This document shows positions 1 to 36,076 of a stretch of 64,000 nt of DNA, piece after piece. The notes beneath the pieces are model-generated. The model worked only from the letters and a program-made list of their open reading frames with translations. It was not told the origin of the DNA and did no database searches. Within the stretch, counting starts at the first letter, position 1, and each line of letters opens with the position of its first letter. The translations under genes and the position numbers were made by a program. The DNA is from Planctomycetota bacterium. Its GTDB lineage: Bacteria > Planctomycetota > SZUA-567 > H5-PLA8. Location of the stretch: positions 35,923 to 99,922 of the forward strand of contig JBBRPR010000030.1 in assembly GCA_038227875.1 (NCBI GenBank). The letters run 5' to 3'.

Positions 1-1051
1 TCATGTCCGAGATGGCATCGAGCGAGAGGTATCGGCGAAAAATGAAGGGCGTGAGCTGATCGAGAAATTCGACGCCAACCGGTTTGTCGCCCGCAACAGG
101 CCGCGCCTTCAGCCACGCCTGGCGCTCCCATGTACGGCCTTCGGTCTGGAAATAATTCAGCGTCTCATCGACGCTGCGGACCAGCGCACCGGCCGAGCCG
201 TGCGGACGAAGACGCATGTCGACGCGGTAGACGCGGCCATCTTCGGTCACTTTGTCGAGCGCCGCGATGAGTTCTTCGGCCAGCGCCGTAAAGTATTGCA
301 CGCTCGCGGAAATTTCTCCGGCGTCTTCCGGCCGCCGTTGGTAGGCAAAGACCAGGTCGATGTCGGAGCTATAGTTGAGCTCTCGCCCGCCCAGTTTCCC
401 CAGCGCGAAAACGACAAAACGCTGGCCGGAATTGGAATCGTCGTGACTCTCGTCCAAATGAACTGGCGCGACACGGCGGCTGCTACGCCCGGCGCGCACA
501 CGTCCCGCCGCGTATCGGAGCGCCGACTCGATGCAGGCATCGGCCAAGTCGCTGAGCGCGCGCACGGTGTCGGTCACCGGCGAAATTCCGGTGAGATCCA
601 GCGCCGCGATCTGCAGCATCGATTCCACGCGCACGCGGCGGAGGGTTGAAATCTGCTGCGCGGGCGTCAGCGCCAGCTTCATGCGTTCGTCGAGCTGGTT
701 GCGCCACGCCGTGCCGCCCGTGACCTGGCGGCGGAGTACCGGCTCCAGCACGATGCGCGGCCGGTCCGGGAAGCGGATGAAGTATTCGCTGAGAGCGGGC
801 GTTCCGGCAAAGAGCATCGCGAGCAATTTCAGGAACTGCCCTTCATTGCCATCCGCGATAAGCAGGCCGCCGGCGTCGAGCCAGCGTTCAAACAGCGCCG
901 CCGCCGTATCGGGATCGCACGAGTCGGCAAACGCGCTCAGCGCATCAGTTTTGACGCCAGCGAATTCAGGGGGAATTTTATTGAGCGCCTGCCGCGCACG
1001 CGACGGATCGCGGAATCCCAGTTTTCGCCAATCGGGCTCGGGCTCGTTCAT
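1..1051 (-). CDS. glnE: Glutamine synthetase adenylyltransferase, 5' part (runs off the left edge)
   Basis: Manual minus-strand translation from ATG 1051 (MNEPEPDWRKLGFRDP...) stays open to the window edge and has GlnE nucleotidyltransferase motifs ALGKLGGRELNYSSDIDLVF, RVDMRLRPHG and EGRTWERQAWLKARPVAGD. Not in the ORF track because no stop is in the window. Confidence 0.93.
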   Translation of the reverse strand, partial: MNEPEPDWRKLGFRDPSRARQALNKIPPEFAGVKTDALSAFADSCDPDTAAALFERWLDAGGLLIADGNEGQFLKLLAMLFAGTPALSEYFIRFPDRPRIVLEPVLRRQVTGGTAWRNQLDERMKLALTPAQQISTLRRVRVESMLQIAALDLTGISPVTDTVRALSDLADACIESALRYAAGRVRAGRSSRRVAPVHLDESHDDSNSGQRFVVFALGKLGGRELNYSSDIDLVFAYQRRPEDAGEISASVQYFTALAEELIAALDKVTEDGRVYRVDMRLRPHGSAGALVRSVDETLNYFQTEGRTWERQAWLKARPVAGDKPVGVEFLDQLTPFIFRRYLSLDAISDM

Positions 1052-15353: not shown

Positions 15354-18300
15354 TTACGGGAACGTCAGCGCCGGCGCCGCGCGGTTGACGGCGCCCGCAT
15401 TGTCGACATAGATCAACTGCGACTGTCCGGTCGGCACATTGATCGCACGTCCATTGATGGACGTGATCGCGAACCCTGTGGAATTTTTGATCGCCACCAT
15501 CTGGCCGTTGGCCATTCCATTAAGCGTCAGAGTGAATGTCGCCGCCACACCGCCGGCGGTCAGATCCACTTCCGATACGCCAGCAGCCGTAGCCACCGTG
15601 TTACCCGCCACCGCGATCGGCAGCGTCGACGCCAGCAGCGCTGTGCCGGTCGCATCCGGCAGCGTCACCGTGCGATTGGCCGTGACCGCCGCCGGCTTCA
15701 GACCCACGGTGAACGTCGCCGCCGGATTCTGCACCAGCAAACCCGCGTTGTTGACCGTCACGCCCGCGCTGAACGTCTTCGCGCCTGTGAACGTCTGCGC
15801 CGTGCCCAAAGTCGCGACCGTATCATTCGCGCCGAGCAGCGGAACGCTCAACACCCGGTTGGCCGTCTCCGCCGCCGGACGGACATTGACCGTAAACGTG
15901 CCCGCCGGATTCTGCACCAGCAGTCCCGTGTTTGAGAACGTCTTGGCGCCCGTGAACGTCTGCGCCGTGCCCAAGGTCGCGAGCGTGTCATTGGCGCCGA
16001 GCAACGGAACGCTCAACACCCGATTGGCCGTCTCCGCCGCCGGACGGACATTGACTGTGAACGTACCTGCGGGATTCTGCACCAGCAGTCCTGTGTTCGT
16101 AAACGTATTCGTATTCAAAAAGACATTCGCGCCATTCTTCAGCGGAATGTTCACCGACAGCGCCGTATCCGCCACGGACGTGTTCGGCAGAGTCAGTGCT
16201 CCCGCGACCGTCAATCCGCCGCTGGCCGTGGTCAGCGCGTTGAATGTCTTTGCGCCCGTGAATGTCTGCGCCGTGCCCAACGTCGCGATCGTGTCATTCG
16301 CGCCCAGCAACGGCACGCTCAAGACCCGGCTGGCCGTCTCGGCTGCCGGTCGCACATTGACCGTAAATGTGCCCGCCGGATTCTGCACCAGAAGCCCCGT
16401 GTTCGTAAACGTCGCATTGTTCGAGAAGACGTTGGCGTTGGTAAACGTGTTCGCCCCGTTCTTCAACGCCACGTTCGCCGACAACGCCGTATCCGCCACG
16501 GACGTGTTCGGCAGAGTCAGTGCTCCCGCCACCGTCAATCCGCCGCTGGCCGTGGTCAGCGCGCTGAACGTCTTCGCGCCCGTGAACGTCTGCGCCGTGC
16601 CCAACGTGGCGACCGTATCGTTCGCGCCGAGCAGCGGAACGCTCAGCACCCGGTTAGCAGTCTCGGCCGCCGGACGGACATTGACCGTGAACGTGCCGGC
16701 CGGATTCTGCACCAGCAAACCGGTGTTGTTGAACGTGTTCGTGCTGGTGAAAACATTTGCGCCATTCTTCAACGCCACGTTGACCGAAAGCGCCGTATCA
16801 GCCACCGACGTATTCGGCAGCGTCAGTGCTCCAGTCACCGTCAGCCCATTACTGGCCTTCAACAGTCCCGCCGAAGTAATCGTGCCCGCGCCCGTAGTCG
16901 CAATGTTTCCTGTCGTGCTGATGGCAATGTTCGCCGCCAGATTCGTGCCGGCGATCGTGGCGTTCGCGATCTTTGCGCCTGTCACCGCGCCTGCGGCAAT
17001 CGTGTTCGCATTGCCCGGACCCGTCACATCACCCGCCAAGATAACGCCGGAAGCCACCGCGCTGATCACGCCGCCCGCAATGGTGATCGAAACGCCGTCC
17101 GGCCGCACCGCGCCCACCGCTGCGCCTGTAGCCAACGGCAGACGCGCCACGGGGACTGTGCCATTCGTAAGTTGCGTGGCGTTAAGCGCAGTAAGCAGCG
17201 ACCCGTTTCCCGTCGCCGTTCCGCTGAAGGTCAAGTTGCCCGCGTTGTTGACGCTGAAATACTTCGTCGCGCCGCCGGAGTTTGTAACCGAAAACACATC
17301 CTGAGCCGGAGCTCCTGCCGACGTCTGCCGCACGCTCAGGCCTGTCACATTCGTCGCACCCGGATTGACCACATTTGCGTTCGTGAACGTCTGCGCCGCA
17401 TTCAGCAGCGCCACATTGCCCGACAAGGCCGTATCCGCCACCGACGTGTTCGGCAGCGTCACCGCGCCGGTCACCGTCAGCCCATTGCTCGCCTTGAGCA
17501 GCCCCGCCGACGTAATCGTGCCCGCGCCGGTCGTCGCAATGTTGCCTGTCGTACTGATCGAAATCCCCGACGCCAGATTCGCGCCAGTCACCTTCCCCGC
17601 CCCAATCGTGTTCGCGTTAGCCGGTCCGGAAACATCGCCCGACAAGTTGATGCCCGCCGCCGACGCACTGATCACGCCGCCGGCCACCGTGATCGTCGTG
17701 CCGTCCGCCTGCAACGCTCCCGGAGCCGCGGTCGTACCCAGCGGCAACCGTGCCACTGGCACCAGGCCAGACGCCAGCGCCGCAGCATCCAGCGACGTCA
17801 ACCCTGAACCGTTGCCGCTCAACACACCGCTCACCGACGTGTTGCCAGACTTGTCGACATTCAAGTACTTCGTCGCGCCGGTCGTATCGGTCACCGAGAA
17901 CACATTCAGCGACGGCGTCGCCGCCGACGTCTGCTTCACCACGACGCTCGATAGATCCGCCACGCCCGGGTCGAACGTGTTGGTCTTCGAGAACGTCTGT
18001 GCCGCGTCCAGCAGCGCCACATTCGCCGACAACGCGCTGTCCGCCACGGAATTGTTCGGCAGCGTCAAGCTTCCGCCGCTGAGCGTGAGGCCGTTGCTCG
18101 CCGTCAGCAAGCCCGTCGACGTCGTGGATCCAGCGACAGCCAGACTGCCGCTGGCTGACGTGTTGCCGGACTTGTCGACGTTCAAGTATTTCGTCGCGCC
18201 GGTCGTATCGGTCACCGAAAACACATCCAGCGACGGCGTCACCGCCGAGGTCTGCTTCACCACGACGCTCGACAGATCCGCCGCACCGGGATCGAACGTA

Positions 18301-19628
18301 TTGGTCATCGAGAACGTCTGCGCCGCATTCAGCAGAGCCACATTCGCCGACAGCGCGCTATCCGCCACGGAACTGTTCGGCAGCGTCAAGCTTCCGCCGC
18401 TGAGCGTCAGCCCATTACTGGCCGTCAACAATCCCGCCGACGTGACCTTGCCTGCACCGGTCGTGCTCACATCGCCGGTGGTGCTGATGGAAATGTTGGG
18501 ATCAAGATTGCCACCTGTAATCGTGCCGGCCGCGATCTTCGTGCCTGTCACCGCTCCCGCTGTGATCGAGTTCGCGTTCGCTGCGCCGGTCACGTCGCCA
18601 TTTAAATTGATGCCAGCCGGGTTGGCCGTAATCACGCTGCCTGCGATGGTAATCGATGTCCCGTCCGGCTGGACCACACCGTTGCTCGCCGTCGTCGCCA
18701 CCGGCAACCGCGCGCTGGCCACAGTTCCTGACGCGATCGCCGATCCATTCAGATTCGCCAGACCTGAACCGTCGCCGCTGAGCACCCCGCTGACCGACGC
18801 ATTGCCCGCTTTGTCGATGCTGAAATACTTCGTCGCGCCCGTGCTGTTCGTGACTGAGAACACATCGCTTGCCGGCGCGCCCGCCGACGTCTGCTTCACC
18901 ACCAGGCCCGTCACGTTGCCGCTGCCCGGGTTGATCACATTGGCGTTGGTGAATGTTTGCGCCGCGTTGAGCAGCGCCACGTTGCTGGACAACGCCACGT
19001 CCGGAATCGATCCCGAAAGCGGTGTCAGGTATGACCACTGCGCGCCGCCGTTGCCGTCGGCCACCAGGCTCATCCCCGGAGAGGCCTGCTGCGATCCGAC
19101 CTTGGCCGTCGTCACCGCGTTGTCCGCCAGTTTCGGCGTCGTCACTGAGCCGTCGGCCAGCGTCAGCGTGCCTACCGCACCGTTGCCGATCTTCGGGCCC
19201 GTCACCGCGCCGTCGACAATGTCGCCGGTGGCAATCGCCGTTGGCGGTGTCGCGCCTGCGCCCACCGTTGCGGGAAGATTCAACACGCTGAACTGCTGCA
19301 ACGTGTACATGACTTCAATGCGAAACGAATCGCTCGGTACCGAGCCAATGCCCGGCGTGTCGGACGCAATCAGCTTCTGATCGGCAAGCACGCGCAAAAT
19401 CGCGCCGCGGACCGCCGCCGTCGGAGGCCGAATGCGCCCCACCACGCCCACGACCGTCGCGATCTTGAACTCGCTGAGGATCATTGCCACCTGCCCCTGC
19501 AGCCGTACGTTCACACGGGTGGGCAGCACGATCATCGGTGGCTTGGTTGCATCCGCCCCTAAGAGGGGCGCACACGATCCGGCGATTCCTGCCAGACTCA
19601 TTGTCAAAATTGCGACTGCGACACGCAT
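15354..19628 (-). CDS. Large exported repetitive fibre/adhesin-like protein (~1,424 aa)
   Basis: Signal-peptide-like N-terminus after GAAGGAGA RBS; T/A/G/S/N-rich; three classes of internal repeats; GAVTxxKIA motifs. Confidence 0.85.
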   Translation of the reverse strand: MRVAVAILTMSLAGIAGSCAPLLGADATKPPMIVLPTRVNVRLQGQVAMILSEFKIATVVGVVGRIRPPTAAVRGAILRVLADQKLIASDTPGIGSVPSDSFRIEVMYTLQQFSVLNLPATVGAGATPPTAIATGDIVDGAVTGPKIGNGAVGTLTLADGSVTTPKLADNAVTTAKVGSQQASPGMSLVADGNGGAQWSYLTPLSGSIPDVALSSNVALLNAAQTFTNANVINPGSGNVTGLVVKQTSAGAPASDVFSVTNSTGATKYFSIDKAGNASVSGVLSGDGSGLANLNGSAIASGTVASARLPVATTASNGVVQPDGTSITIAGSVITANPAGINLNGDVTGAANANSITAGAVTGTKIAAGTITGGNLDPNISISTTGDVSTTGAGKVTSAGLLTASNGLTLSGGSLTLPNSSVADSALSANVALLNAAQTFSMTNTFDPGAADLSSVVVKQTSAVTPSLDVFSVTDTTGATKYLNVDKSGNTSASGSLAVAGSTTSTGLLTASNGLTLSGGSLTLPNNSVADSALSANVALLDAAQTFSKTNTFDPGVADLSSVVVKQTSAATPSLNVFSVTDTTGATKYLNVDKSGNTSVSGVLSGNGSGLTSLDAAALASGLVPVARLPLGTTAAPGALQADGTTITVAGGVISASAAGINLSGDVSGPANANTIGAGKVTGANLASGISISTTGNIATTGAGTITSAGLLKASNGLTVTGAVTLPNTSVADTALSGNVALLNAAQTFTNANVVNPGATNVTGLSVRQTSAGAPAQDVFSVTNSGGATKYFSVNNAGNLTFSGTATGNGSLLTALNATQLTNGTVPVARLPLATGAAVGAVRPDGVSITIAGGVISAVASGVILAGDVTGPGNANTIAAGAVTGAKIANATIAGTNLAANIAISTTGNIATTGAGTITSAGLLKASNGLTVTGALTLPNTSVADTALSVNVALKNGANVFTSTNTFNNTGLLVQNPAGTFTVNVRPAAETANRVLSVPLLGANDTVATLGTAQTFTGAKTFSALTTASGGLTVAGALTLPNTSVADTALSANVALKNGANTFTNANVFSNNATFTNTGLLVQNPAGTFTVNVRPAAETASRVLSVPLLGANDTIATLGTAQTFTGAKTFNALTTASGGLTVAGALTLPNTSVADTALSVNIPLKNGANVFLNTNTFTNTGLLVQNPAGTFTVNVRPAAETANRVLSVPLLGANDTLATLGTAQTFTGAKTFSNTGLLVQNPAGTFTVNVRPAAETANRVLSVPLLGANDTVATLGTAQTFTGAKTFSAGVTVNNAGLLVQNPAATFTVGLKPAAVTANRTVTLPDATGTALLASTLPIAVAGNTVATAAGVSEVDLTAGGVAATFTLTLNGMANGQMVAIKNSTGFAITSINGRAINVPTGQSQLIYVDNAGAVNRAAPALTFP

Positions 19629-19763
19629 GACCGTCTCCTTCAAACTGACCCGCCGAACTTTCCGGTTTACGGAAACTTCGACTGCTAACGCATGAGCTTG
19701 GTTGCTAAATGAATCAATTGCGCGGGTGCAAGCGGCGCAAAAATCGACTATGTATTGGATATC

Positions 19764-19779
19764 TGCAATTTCACGGCCA
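19764..19779 (-). promoter_or_regulatory. Sigma-54 (-24/-12) promoter of the adhesin gene
   Basis: Minus strand TGGCCGTGAAATTGCA gives GG-N10-GC with TTGCA, about 135 bp upstream of the start codon. Confidence 0.6.
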
Positions 19780-19873
19780 AGCTTGAGGGATCAGTTAAGT
19801 GACAGCCCTTGCGGGAGTTACTAGCGCGCCTAGTGCAGTAAGGTTTACTCTAAAAACAAAAATCTCCGGTTGA

Positions 19874-19895
19874 TTCCCAATTATGGAATTGGGAA
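19874..19895. promoter_or_regulatory. Inverted repeat, candidate enhancer (UAS) or operator
   Basis: TTCCCAATT-ATGG-AATTGGGAA, about 100 bp upstream of the sigma-54 box. Confidence 0.4.
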
Positions 19896-19939
19896 GAGCA
19901 CAGTTGGCCAACTTGGACATCGTCAACCTTGTCGGTTCA

Positions 19940-19987
19940 AATCTATATATTGTGGTGGTATTTAAAGAGTGTTCCCAGCTATTGTGG
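19940..19987. promoter_or_regulatory. Candidate tandem NrdR-like boxes
   Basis: AATCTATATATTGTGG (19940-19955) matches the CwATATATwGTG core; a weaker TTCCCAGCTATTGTGG starts 32 bp later. Confidence 0.35.
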
Positions 19988-20128
19988 ATAAGGAAAATTT
20001 TCCTTAAGCTACGGCTGTGCGATGATATTTGAGCGGTTGATTTGCCGCGCCGTCGTCCGATTTCAATCGTATCAGCGCGGCGTCGGTGCTATTCTTCGCG
20101 AAGCATCCGTGTGAACAAGGAATCAATC

Positions 20129-20650
20129 ATGCGAACCGCCCTCACCCTGACCCTGACTCTGCTCCTCAGCGCTGTGACGCTCAACGCCAGCGCCGCGCAG
20201 GACGCGCCGGCGAAAGTCATCAGCCACGGCCAGGCCGTTGATCTCAAAAGTGTGCTCGCCGCCGACAAGAACACCGTCTTCGAATTCTACGCCGATTGGT
20301 GAGGCGCCTGCCGCGTCATGGGGCCTCAGTTTGAGGCCGCCGCCAAAAAACGGAGCGATCTGACGCTCGTCCGCGTCGACATCAACAACTGGGACAGCGC
20401 CGTCGCGCGCCAGTTCTCGATTCAATCGCTGCCGAATCTGATTCTCTATAACCCGCAGGGTGAGGTGCTCAAGCGCGGCCGAGCGGCCGTGGGCCACGAA
20501 CTGATGCCCGCCCAGATCGCCGACGGGAGCGATGAAAGTTCAGGCGGCGATTTCAACGGCTGGCTGATCGTCATCCCCGCGCTGGCCGGATTCCTGCTGC
20601 TGCTGTTCGTGCTCACCAAAGCCTTGGGACCGAAGCGCCGCACGCTATAA
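20129..20650 (+). CDS. Exported, C-terminally membrane-anchored thioredoxin with in-frame UGA (selenocysteine, UxxC)
   Basis: ORFs 20042..20302 and 20318..20650 are in one frame and join as ...VFEFYADW-TGA-GACRVMGPQF...VRVDIN...FSIQSLP (thioredoxin fold); signal peptide and C-terminal TM plus KRR. Confidence 0.85.
20303..20344 (+). promoter_or_regulatory. Bacterial SECIS-like stem-loop
   Basis: GGCCTCA-GTT-TGAGGCC (20322-20338) with G as first loop base 27 nt after the UGA; GGCG (20303) can pair with CGCC (20341). Confidence 0.65.
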
Positions 20651-21772
20651 TCACGGCTTGAGCCGGATGCGATCCGCGCCGACCCATTCATCCCATTCCT
20701 TGCCGTAACCGTCGTAGGTGATGAAGTATTTCTTCTCCTCGGCGTTCACTTTCAACACTTTCGCCGGCCACCAGCGGTGGTGCCATTCCACCTGCGCCTT
20801 CGAACCGACTTTCAGTTCCGTCGGGGCCTTCCCCGCGGCAAACGCGCGCACGTCCTTCTCCGCGACCCAATCTTCCTCACGCGCCACGGTCGTGGCGTAG
20901 CGGACGTGCAGTTTGCCATCCTTCACGTCTTCCACCAGCGCCCGGTACCAGTCGCCTTCGTACAACACCTCGACATGCTCGCCGATGCGCTTGTCGCTCT
21001 TTTTCTCAGCGACCGCGAGCTTGAACTCCGGCGGCAACTTCCCACCGCGCGACGCCGCCGCCGTCTGCTCATCAAAAAACCGCATCTCCCCGCGGATGTA
21101 CTTCGCCGCCTCGTCAAACGTGACCGCACCGTCGCCATCCAGATCCGCCTGCGGCTTGCCTTCCAGCACATCCAGGAGGCTGTCGCTGAAGGTCCAGTTG
21201 CCCGTCGACGTCGCACCGCCGGTCACCGACGTCAATACCGCGTAATCGATCGGGCCCTTCTGAGTCTTCGCGAGGTCGGCCATCACGCCCGATTCGCAGC
21301 AATCCGCCAGCAGCACCGCGCGCTTGCCGTGAAAATTCTCCTCCAGCGACTCAAAGATCGACGGAATGCCCCACGCCGTATCGTAAGCGTCGTACGTCGC
21401 GAAGTACGTCACGCCATTGTCGCCCTTGTACCCATGCCCGCAGAAATACAGAAAGAGCGTGTCGCCCTTCTCCGCTTTGGCCGCGAAGGTCTTCAGTGCC
21501 GCCTCGACCGCCGCCGTGGTTGCGGCGCGGTCCTGGAGCAGTTTCACATGATCCGCCGGCACGCCGAGCGTCTTGAACTCTTCCACTAAAAGCGAATCCC
21601 GCCGCCCCGCCTTGGGAAATGAGTGAAGAAAATCCGGATGCTTCCACTCGAGCAACCCCACCACAAACACCCACGATTTCGCAGGCGCCCAATCCGTTTC
21701 CGCCGCCCGAACCGCGTCAATCGAACACGACAGCGCCATCAGCGCGCAGAGCATCAGCATGATTTTTTTCAT
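20651..21772 (-). CDS. Secreted caspase-like (peptidase C14) protein with EF-hand-like loop and two Tudor/Agenet-like domains
   Basis: Signal peptide; FLYFCGHG and LLADCCESG catalytic dyad; DLDGDGAVTFDE; VEVLYEGDWYRA and VEWHHRWWPAKV...YDGYGKEWDEWV. Confidence 0.8.
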   Translation of the reverse strand: MKKIMLMLCALMALSCSIDAVRAAETDWAPAKSWVFVVGLLEWKHPDFLHSFPKAGRRDSLLVEEFKTLGVPADHVKLLQDRAATTAAVEAALKTFAAKAEKGDTLFLYFCGHGYKGDNGVTYFATYDAYDTAWGIPSIFESLEENFHGKRAVLLADCCESGVMADLAKTQKGPIDYAVLTSVTGGATSTGNWTFSDSLLDVLEGKPQADLDGDGAVTFDEAAKYIRGEMRFFDEQTAAASRGGKLPPEFKLAVAEKKSDKRIGEHVEVLYEGDWYRALVEDVKDGKLHVRYATTVAREEDWVAEKDVRAFAAGKAPTELKVGSKAQVEWHHRWWPAKVLKVNAEEKKYFITYDGYGKEWDEWVGADRIRLKP

Positions 21773-35614: not shown

Positions 35615-36076
35615 TCATTTTGCAGGCCACGTCTTCTGCAACGCTTCATCCGACACGCCATCGAATTCCCGCAGCGCGTACTTGGCCTTGAACGCCGCCA
35701 GATCCGCCGCCTGCGGTTCAACATGCAGCGTAATGTTGTTCTGGCAGAAGTGAAACGTGGAGTAATACCATTTCCCGTCCGAAGCCTTGCCCACAAAGAT
35801 ATCGTTGAACCCAGGGTCGTGGTACTTTCCCTCGCCCACGATCCACTCGCCATTCTTCATCACCGCGATCTGCGCGGAAGTCCAGTCTGGCGCCTCAATC
35901 CCCGCAATTTCCTGAGCACGCCACGCCGGATCATCCGCAAACCGCGCGACCCTCACGACCGCCGCATCCTTCCACGCCCGCCGCGCCGCCCACGGGGCAT
36001 ACCGCGCCCGCACCACCACCGCGACGAACGTCAGCGAGGTGAGCACGAGGACTGCGATGATCAGCTTTCGTTTCAT
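35615..36076 (-). CDS. Hypothetical protein with N-terminal membrane anchor
   Basis: MKRKLIIAVLVLTSLTFVAVVV; 153 aa, coding-like. Confidence 0.7.
   Translation of the reverse strand: MKRKLIIAVLVLTSLTFVAVVVRARYAPWAARRAWKDAAVVRVARFADDPAWRAQEIAGIEAPDWTSAQIAVMKNGEWIVGEGKYHDPGFNDIFVGKASDGKWYYSTFHFCQNNITLHVEPQAADLAAFKAKYALREFDGVSDEALQKTWPAK

Follow-up and report, generated by a model that had tools for sequence, protein, structure and literature searches.

Does the gene at 20129-20650 (+) of a planctomycete contig stop at an internal TGA, or is this TGA read as selenocysteine (Sec)? The stretch analysed, called the window below, comprises 64,000 nucleotides (nt) from positions 35,923 to 99,922 of contig JBBRPR010000030.1 (Planctomycetota bacterium, assembly GCA_038227875.1). 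An initial annotation of this DNA had proposed a 173-residue, extracytoplasmic, membrane-anchored seleno-thioredoxin. Our analysis supports that proposal by the Sec machinery of the genome, by the presence of Sec or Cys in one column among the relatives, and by a hairpin that only the Sec forms carry. We consider it very likely that the locus is an intact, unannotated selenoprotein gene of 173 residues, and sequence comparison suggests that Sec would be inserted at codon 58.

A thioredoxin frame runs across the TGA

From the ATG at 20129 to the TAA at 20648-20650, the sequence reads as a single frame of 173 codons. Its sole internal stop is the TGA at 20300-20302 (codon 58), in the context ...EFYADW-U-GAC-R. 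A mechanical list of open reading frames (ORFs) cuts the gene in two (20042..20302 and 20318..20650), while the Pfam Thioredoxin model PF00085 matches residues 41-112 straight across the TGA (E 2.1e-16, 60.2 bits vs a cut-off of 23.5). The split by the ORF caller and the TGA in the nucleophile position of a WCxxC motif had been described in the initial annotation with correct coordinates and counts. The continuation of the thioredoxin frame for 115 codons past the TGA, including the SLP loop, is borne out by the frame and the PF00085 match. The features of the gene are as follows.

20117..20122 (+): Shine-Dalgarno-like AAGGAA, 6 nt before the ATG, putative and read from the sequence alone.
20129..20650 (+): whole coding sequence, 173 codons plus TAA, with the codon-58 TGA taken as Sec (frame; PF00085 match).
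20129..20194 (+): predicted signal peptide, residues 1-22 (MR, hydrophobic core, A-S-A, then AQD), from hydropathy and helix 2-22 of the model; cleavage putative.
20210..20503 (+): thioredoxin-fold domain, residues 28-125 (AlphaFold model; Foldseek).
20300..20302 (+): TGA, putative Sec58, the attacking residue of the U-G-A-C active site (TGA/TGY column in relatives; independent contig).
20309..20311 (+): TGC, Cys61, the resolving cysteine, nearly invariant in a 45-sequence alignment (A4).
20322..20338 (+): hairpin of the selenocysteine insertion sequence (SECIS) type, GGCCUCA/UGAGGCC with loop GUU, on codons G-P-Q-F-E-A (covariation in Sec forms only; rare CCU Pro codon).
20432..20434 (+): CCG, Pro102, the thioredoxin cis-proline, within S-L-P at 20426-20434; invariant in A4.
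20504..20557 (+): flexible Gly/Ser/Asp-rich linker, residues 126-143 (low model confidence, block mean 49 for residues 131-140).
20558..20626 (+): C-terminal transmembrane helix, residues 144-166 (hydropathy; helix in the model).
20633..20641 (+): K-R-R, predicted cytoplasmic tail and positive-inside stop-transfer signal; Cys homologues go on into a cytoplasmic GYF_2 domain there.

Searching 20100-20700 against Rfam gave no match at E up to 1, and a sigma-70 promoter and terminator scan of 19650-20800 gave nothing useful upstream of the gene.

Taken at face value, the split would leave two small genes, one for an exported peptide of 57 residues that would end with the TGA and one for a membrane protein of 110 residues that would start from the ATG at 20318. 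This ATG lies 5 codons past the TGA, and pipelines do call the downstream ORF. We find such an arrangement hardly credible. Both the Pfam match and the predicted fold cross the TGA unbroken, and the downstream piece alone would be without strand 48-54, the nucleophile and the export signal. Moreover, none of the Cys forms is split: each of them, the paralogue of the source genome included, is one continuous protein.

The source genome keeps a complete Sec system

Selenocysteine insertion calls for selA, selB, selC (tRNA-Sec) and selD, which the initial annotation had proposed to look for. All four were found above curated cut-offs in the source genome (9.3 Mb in 176 contigs, 88% complete). The tRNA-Sec scored 71.5 bits vs a cut-off of 47, and ARAGORN also called it SeC with anticodon TCA. 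SelA reached 530.7 bits (cut-off 267.9), SelB 343 bits summed, with the C-terminal part included (cut-off 242), and SelD 301.6 bits (cut-off 125). The selD gene (L018, G000:C10:153331-154248) lies inside a 750-residue open frame and is probably fused to another domain.

TGA otherwise behaves as a stop. Of the 27 long ORFs in the window, 9 end in TGA, among them the next gene downstream, and so does the Cys paralogue. A reassigned genetic code is therefore excluded. No Sec-type formate dehydrogenase was found in the 88%-complete genome, the best TIGR01553 match scoring 107.5 bits vs 814.2 and having no internal TGA. A full Sec system without this enzyme therefore needs clients of the selenothioredoxin sort.

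We also scanned the genome for further Sec genes by a deliberately strict and crude procedure, whose 7 hits do not amount to a selenoproteome. They comprise this gene and six others that were checked with Pfam, four of which had no Pfam support. One candidate, L114, was rejected, its TGA being an ordinary stop behind the C-terminal GG of ThiS. Outside the window, the genome has another candidate for an exported selenoprotein, at L116:1-849 (-), or G000:C32:79501-80349. In this protein a signal peptide precedes an AhpC/TSA domain (PF00578, E 2.5e-7, residues 45-169), which extends across an in-frame TGA (codon 83). Its active-site motif is FWNADVA-C-U-GGP, and a 9-bp hairpin lies about 25 nt downstream of the TGA.

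Relatives carry TGA or a Cys codon in the same column

Performing a six-frame search of 401 genomes of the phylum, the window's own included, at E 1e-12 or better, we obtained 37 matches outside the own genome, of which 21 were flagged as having one TGA and 16 as having none. At the locus level 29 were examined; the remaining 8 (4 flagged with a TGA) stand outside the counts given here. In 17 of 17 flagged loci the TGA falls exactly at the first active-site position (ADW-U-GAC, -U-PAC, -U-PGC and others), and conserved thioredoxin sequence continues after it. The other 12 of the 29 have TGY in this column. These 17 Sec forms come from 17 genomes of 10 other families, and the Sec forms as a whole are spread over 11 taxonomic families. 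The Cys forms with TGY number 13, including a paralogue on contig C11 of the source genome that is 41% identical, reads W-C-A-S-C and has the same layout of signal peptide, thioredoxin domain and transmembrane helix. Thus, the alignment of homologues shows what the initial annotation had anticipated, TGA or TGY in the column and conservation on both sides. Two matches were ruled out as relatives: L076 (57% over 30 residues), a zinc-finger Trx2 with WCGPC, and a G003 match flagged with one TGA, which is the normal stop of a cytoplasmic thioredoxin.

The dipeptide between the redox residues is GA in 9 of the 18 Sec forms, PG in 3, PA in 2 and GG, NI, MG or HG in one each. The classical G-P occurs in none of the 18; it is found in 7 of the 13 Cys forms. 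In a tree of 31 domains the Sec and Cys forms are interleaved, with about 6 changes between them, at least 2 of which are forced by well-supported branches. Judged from this tree, the clade has switched between Sec and Cys at least twice, and probably about six times in all. The places of the window's protein and of the C11 paralogue in the tree are not settled.

Protein databases hold the nearest relatives as fragments. A word-indexed search returned three of them (99, 91 and 71% identity, 106-110 residues), all starting MGPQFEAA. An exhaustive search, with 919 proteins at E 1e-10 or better and many full-length Cys forms among them, added P0134 and P0154, which have the same start point and the C-terminal anchor and are likewise truncated. 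All five close database relatives (P0002, P0003, P0004, P0134 and P0154) begin at the first start codon after the TGA and are therefore cut at the same place. Scans of genome and metagenome contigs returned distant thioredoxins only (26-38%), and the DNA of the closest relatives was not obtained there.

Independent sequencing also bears on the TGA. We aligned contigs of four other sequencing runs on 19950-20750. X2 record 2 (20086-20379) is identical, but it and the possible source belong to one study. A different study supplied X3 record 7, a metagenome contig of 294 nt that spans 20190-20474 with 14 differences (about 95% identical), none of them at 20300-20302 or 20322-20338. Past the TGA, four of the five listed differences are synonymous third-position changes, and the fifth is the conservative S97A, a residue also found in P0002. 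The region past the TGA is therefore under purifying selection. The X4 and X5 contigs had no useful span over the TGA. The TGA, kept in 17 relatives and in the X3 contig, is not the sequence error that the initial annotation had allowed for.

These data also speak to a pseudogene, that is, a dead and decaying thioredoxin gene whose active-site TGC had mutated to TGA. This change takes a single base, gene callers do take the locus as two ORFs, and every close database entry is a truncated protein. However, a dying gene would hardly share its TGA column with 17 examined relatives from 10 other families, nor would the protein sequence past the TGA be conserved, nor would an independent, diverged contig keep the TGA with largely silent changes downstream. 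Together with the TGA-specific hairpin and rare CCU codon described below, these observations make a pseudogene highly improbable.

Two further kinds of protein were noticed in these searches. In L084:1477-2136 (-), and also in L086, L099 and L100 (family f28), a lipoprotein-type signal and an HMA domain precede a Cys-form thioredoxin domain in a single fusion protein. The HMA domain (Pfam E 5.3e-6) carries the motif VEGMT-U-PVG-U-G, with two in-frame TGAs kept in four genomes. Its nearest NCBIfam model is NF041115, 'UxxU metal-binding (seleno)protein' (47.1 bits vs a cut-off of 95), and it looks like a variant of a known double-Sec metal-binding protein with U-x-x-x-U spacing. L084 adjoins a P-type ATPase and L099 a MerR regulator. 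Separately, the database proteins P0006-P0013 have 800-1400 residues and 6-9 matched thioredoxin stretches each. P0015 begins in the middle of a thioredoxin domain and ends ...EFYADW, and P0020 and P0023 begin just past an active site. The latter three look like pieces cut at successive Sec-TGAs of tandem multi-thioredoxin proteins.

The hairpin downstream of the TGA is specific to the Sec forms

A perfect 7-bp inverted repeat, GGCCTCA/TGAGGCC, occupies 20322-20328 and 20332-20338 around the loop GTT. A spacer of 19 nt separates the TGA from the stem, and the loop G (20329) is nt 27 counted from the TGA. The stem with its G-first loop is thus present as the initial annotation had it, the '27 nt downstream' given there being the position of the loop G. 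For comparison, we set distance and loop limits after the bSECISearch model, with the loop starting 16-37 nt past the UGA and a G as its first or second base. Among the 2066 TGA trinucleotides on both strands of the window, 42 (2.0%) have a Watson-Crick stem of at least 7 bp at a comparable distance, and 17 (0.8%) have such a stem plus a G in the first two loop positions. It is the comparative evidence that carries the case for the hairpin, since the hairpin alone is uncommon but not decisive in the GC-rich window.

For this evidence, ungapped 54-nt alignments starting from the TGA or TGY codon were compared between the Sec forms (18) and the Cys forms (13), the latter serving as a direct control because they encode the same peptide region without need for a SECIS. 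Pairing stem columns 22-28 with 34-40 (loop 29-33), we find 86.5% of cells paired in the Sec forms, a level reached by 0 of 500 shuffles; covariation in these forms was 0.232 vs 0.101. Shifting the partner by 1-3 columns lowers the Sec-form pairing to 32-57%. Pair 23-39 occurs in the Sec forms as five standard types (GC 7, AU 4, CG 2, GU 2, UA 1) and pair 24-38 as two. In the Cys forms 36.3% of these cells are paired, which does not exceed chance, as 444 of 500 shuffled sets do equally well. Column 30 of the loop falls on the third position of a Gln or Arg codon; every Sec form has G there, and the Cys forms vary. The Pro codon that helps to form the stem is CCT in 15 of 18 Sec forms vs 2 of 9 Cys forms with Pro at this site. 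Of the 53 other Pro codons in these domains, 7 are CCT, and long ORFs of the source genome use CCT least of all Pro codons (6.3%). By these alignments, the hairpin is conserved and covarying in the Sec forms only. The decay past the TGA that the initial annotation had named as a sign against its reading was not seen, the downstream sequence being conserved.

A further possibility is that the UGA is read through without selenium, either by near-cognate decoding as Cys, Trp or another residue, or by Sec machinery that supplies Cys under selenium shortage, so that the mature protein would mostly be a common thioredoxin. Read-through can in general be promoted by structures downstream of a stop, and the repeated changes in the tree indicate that Sec and Cys interchange easily in this family. 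Against this stand the complete Sec system, kept although no Sec-type formate dehydrogenase was found, and the position and invariant apical G of the hairpin, which match the bacterial SECIS description in PMC1976440. We judge read-through without selenium to be improbable. The working criteria set out in that paper are an in-frame TGA that aligns with Cys in two or more homologues, conservation of the TGA itself in at least two sequences, and a stem-loop directly after the UGA that has guanosines at its apex. The corresponding findings here are 13 Cys forms, 17 further Sec forms and a Sec-specific hairpin with the invariant loop G30.

The protein is predicted to be exported and anchored

We modelled the protein with AlphaFold from the 45-sequence family alignment. 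The mean predicted local distance difference test (pLDDT) value was 86.5. The model comprises a helix (residues 2-22), a thioredoxin core (28-125), a low-confidence linker and a second helix (144-166). Block means in the core are 93-98 for residues 31-120, and the elements follow the order E-H-E-H-E-H-E-E-H. The active-site helix (59-73) starts right after residue 58, and Pro102 stands just before strand 103-107. The best Foldseek matches in the PDB are classical thioredoxins, E. coli TrxA among them, with template modelling scores of 0.6-0.7 on the target. Among chains of solved structure, PDI a-domains and thioredoxins come nearest in sequence. Human TMX (PDB 1x5e, Foldseek rank 12) is alike in layout, with a signal peptide and a thioredoxin domain held beyond the membrane on a single C-terminal transmembrane helix. 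It differs in being a eukaryotic endoplasmic reticulum protein with a Cys active site, and there is no evidence of common descent beyond the thioredoxin fold.

The initial annotation had also proposed a signal peptide and a C-terminal transmembrane helix followed by KRR, and hydropathy agrees with the AlphaFold model on both. Mean Kyte-Doolittle (KD) hydropathy reaches 2.63 across residues 144-162 and stays at or below 0.41 throughout the core. In the family, 16 of the 18 Sec and 12 of the 13 Cys sequences have a hydrophobic segment with a KD of at least 1.6 on the N-terminal side of the domain, and the other three lie at 1.45-1.55. For the window's own gene, the entry in this count is a segment upstream of the start codon, and its own evidence is the KD of residues 5-23. 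The signal peptide would be cleaved after Ala22. Taking the N-terminal MR, the A-S-A before AQD, and the KRR after the last helix together with the positive-inside rule, we place the thioredoxin domain outside the membrane in the predicted topology.

Among the genome's loci, the C-terminal helix is added only in the window's gene and its paralogue. Many Cys homologues from the databases (P0028, P0031, P0033, P0046, P0081, P0090 and others) run from a signal peptide through a thioredoxin domain and a transmembrane helix to a GYF_2 domain on the cytoplasmic side (PF14237; E 1.3e-6 in P0031). Because homologues continue past the helix into GYF_2, we take the helix as an anchor and not a cleaved tag. 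Consistent with this, no curated NCBIfam sorting-signal model (PEP-CTERM and similar) matched at E up to 0.01. The GYF_2 layout of the Cys homologues hints at signalling or protein binding across the membrane.

Proposed mechanism and function

At the UGA (20300-20302), the hairpin at 20322-20338 would recruit SelB with Sec-tRNA(Sec), and Sec would be inserted at position 58, where it would serve as the nucleophile of the thioredoxin U-G-A-C active site. The signal peptide would send the unfolded chain through the general secretion pathway, and the C-terminal helix with its KRR tail would stop transfer. The thioredoxin domain would thus come to lie outside the cytoplasmic membrane on a flexible tether. 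There its most likely role would be that of a thiol-disulfide (selenenylsulfide) oxidoreductase, with envelope proteins or small oxidants as its substrates. Its reduced state may be maintained by the DsbD/CcdA-type membrane electron conduit of the genome, which has a DsbD_TM gene (101.6 bits vs a cut-off of 27.1) and thus a source of reducing power for the envelope. An envelope thiol-disulfide oxidoreductase using a selenenylsulfide is the best reading of the protein, with the electron donor and substrate as putative parts of it. Since no neighbouring gene is conserved, the substrate and the link to DsbD are guesses.

The gene stands alone between two unrelated genes on the opposite strand. 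Upstream, 15354-19643 (-) is a 1429-residue ORF with no Pfam match above threshold and a sub-threshold DUF7598 only. Downstream, 20651-21772 (-) pairs a caspase domain (Peptidase_C14, E 1.1e-7) with a C-terminal Agenet/Tudor-knot, an unusual combination for a bacterial protein.

Several observations weigh against an anchored selenoprotein at this locus. As a single sequence, the hairpin is unexceptional: its 64-nt fold (z = -0.86) is equalled or bettered by 36 of 200 shuffled sequences. Within the Sec set, 13.5% of stem cells are unpaired, the stems of L079 and L081 are weak, and in L094, where Glu is replaced by Arg, the hairpin survives only in a register shifted by one. The signal peptide has a modest hydropathy (mean KD 1.58 in the 19-residue window 5-23). 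No conserved neighbour was found among 78 flanking ORFs from 29 loci, the sole exception being TruB/DUF4388 in two genomes of one genus. The distribution is patchy: searches of the 19 further genomes in the order and the 61 in the class turned up no orthologue, and many of these genomes are incomplete, so that 'not found' does not mean 'absent'. Finally, for the nearest relatives that share the anchor, the DNA compared consists of the short X2 and X3 contigs only.

Relation to known selenoproteins

Table 1 of the 2026 review PMC13188914 includes 'Thioredoxin (Trx), PF00085, UxxC' as an experimentally verified selenoprotein family (its ref. 84, Kim et al. 2015), and a rule stated in that paper assigns proteins with the same domain and the same Sec position to the same family. 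The window's protein shares the PF00085 domain and the Sec position, and under this rule we therefore count it in the Trx selenoprotein family. As in that family, the putative Sec is the first residue of the CxxC motif at the N-terminus of the active-site helix, the fold is classical with its cis-Pro, and the predicted SECIS lies in the coding region just past the UGA. Unlike the verified Sec-thioredoxin, which reportedly belongs to Treponema denticola, it has a predicted signal peptide and C-terminal transmembrane anchor, and G-A rather than G-P as the dipeptide. It is not a TrxA orthologue, TIGR01068 scoring 60.4 bits vs a cut-off of 96.8. None of the curated NCBIfam models reaches its cut-off for the read-through protein, and the TlpA/ResA/DsbE/StoA models fall below it as well (StoA 33.3 vs 210), as does DsbD (32.5 vs 330). 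The Pfam models Redoxin, AhpC-TSA and Thioredoxin_2 are also below their cut-offs (PF08534 22.8 vs 26.6, PF00578 22.1 vs 26, PF13098 17.6 vs 27).

DsbA, DsbG and TlpA act outside the cytoplasm. The predicted thioredoxin-fold families in Table 1 of PMC13188914 that homology places outside the cytoplasm include thiol:disulfide interchange (PF13098), DsbA-like, DsbG-like, thiol-disulfide isomerase-like (cd02966), UGC-containing TlpA and Redoxin. The same table has ABC substrate-binding and outer-membrane selenoproteins, and the catalytic subunits of E. coli Fdh-N and Fdh-O are periplasmic (PMC3160892). Hence the extracytoplasmic location put forward in the initial annotation stands as a topology prediction, but calling it unusual was an overstatement, since exported and periplasmic selenoproteins are already catalogued. 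The protein resembles the exported DsbA/DsbG/TlpA-type selenoproteins in its UxxC on a thioredoxin fold and in being routinely truncated by gene callers. It is unlike them in that its domain is of the classical thioredoxin/PDI-a type.

In SelB/SECIS recoding of the E. coli fdhF type, a stem-loop with an apical G lies immediately 3' of the UGA within the ORF. The window's gene is alike in these respects, and selA, selB, selC and selD are present in its genome. It is unlike the fdhF-type SECIS in the hairpin sequence, CCUCAG-loop-GAGG on P-Q-x-E codons, which is specific to this family and would be its SelB site. A general description of SelB/SECIS recoding is given in PMC12013277.

Two 'thiol-disulfide isomerase-like thioredoxin' Sec candidates, each annotated as two genes, are entered for the planctomycete P1 in Table S9 of a 2016 paper (PMC4807772), which gives them a Cys homologue in another planctomycete and a bSECISearch SECIS entry of 'no'. 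Compared by these table descriptions only, both the P1 candidates and the present gene are thioredoxin-like split genes, and the latter has a conserved hairpin. The exact clade was not found described in the literature searched; BSepDB or bioRxiv supplements could hold it. The novelty is modest, as a Sec-thioredoxin is established and exported thioredoxin-fold selenoproteins are catalogued.

What the gene means for the family

Knowledge of how selenoproteins are made, or of where they may be located, is unchanged by this gene. It has value for annotation: the close database entries are all fragments, and because no curated NCBIfam model reaches its cut-off, pipelines will keep splitting such genes or calling them pseudogenes. 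A hairpin that only the Sec forms carry on a conserved peptide, with the Cys forms as control, offers a clean natural case of RNA-level selection at synonymous sites.

A broader interpretation is that the gene belongs to an uncatalogued, phylum-wide clade of membrane-anchored extracytoplasmic Sec-thioredoxins with its own SECIS type, in which envelope redox proteins would perhaps be the main reason for keeping Sec, amounting to an envelope-directed selenoproteome. We put this forward tentatively and with more doubt than belief. Its basis is the complete Sec system in a genome where no Sec-type formate dehydrogenase was found, together with at least one additional exported thioredoxin-fold candidate there (on C32). 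The SECIS type of such a clade may be CCUCAG-loop-GAGG over the P-Q-x-E codons, and the clade seems also to include tandem multi-domain proteins with several Sec codons. The gene raises the question of what advantage a selenenylsulfide would have over a disulfide in an oxidising compartment, and the family is suited to testing it, because matched Sec and Cys paralogues coexist in one genome.

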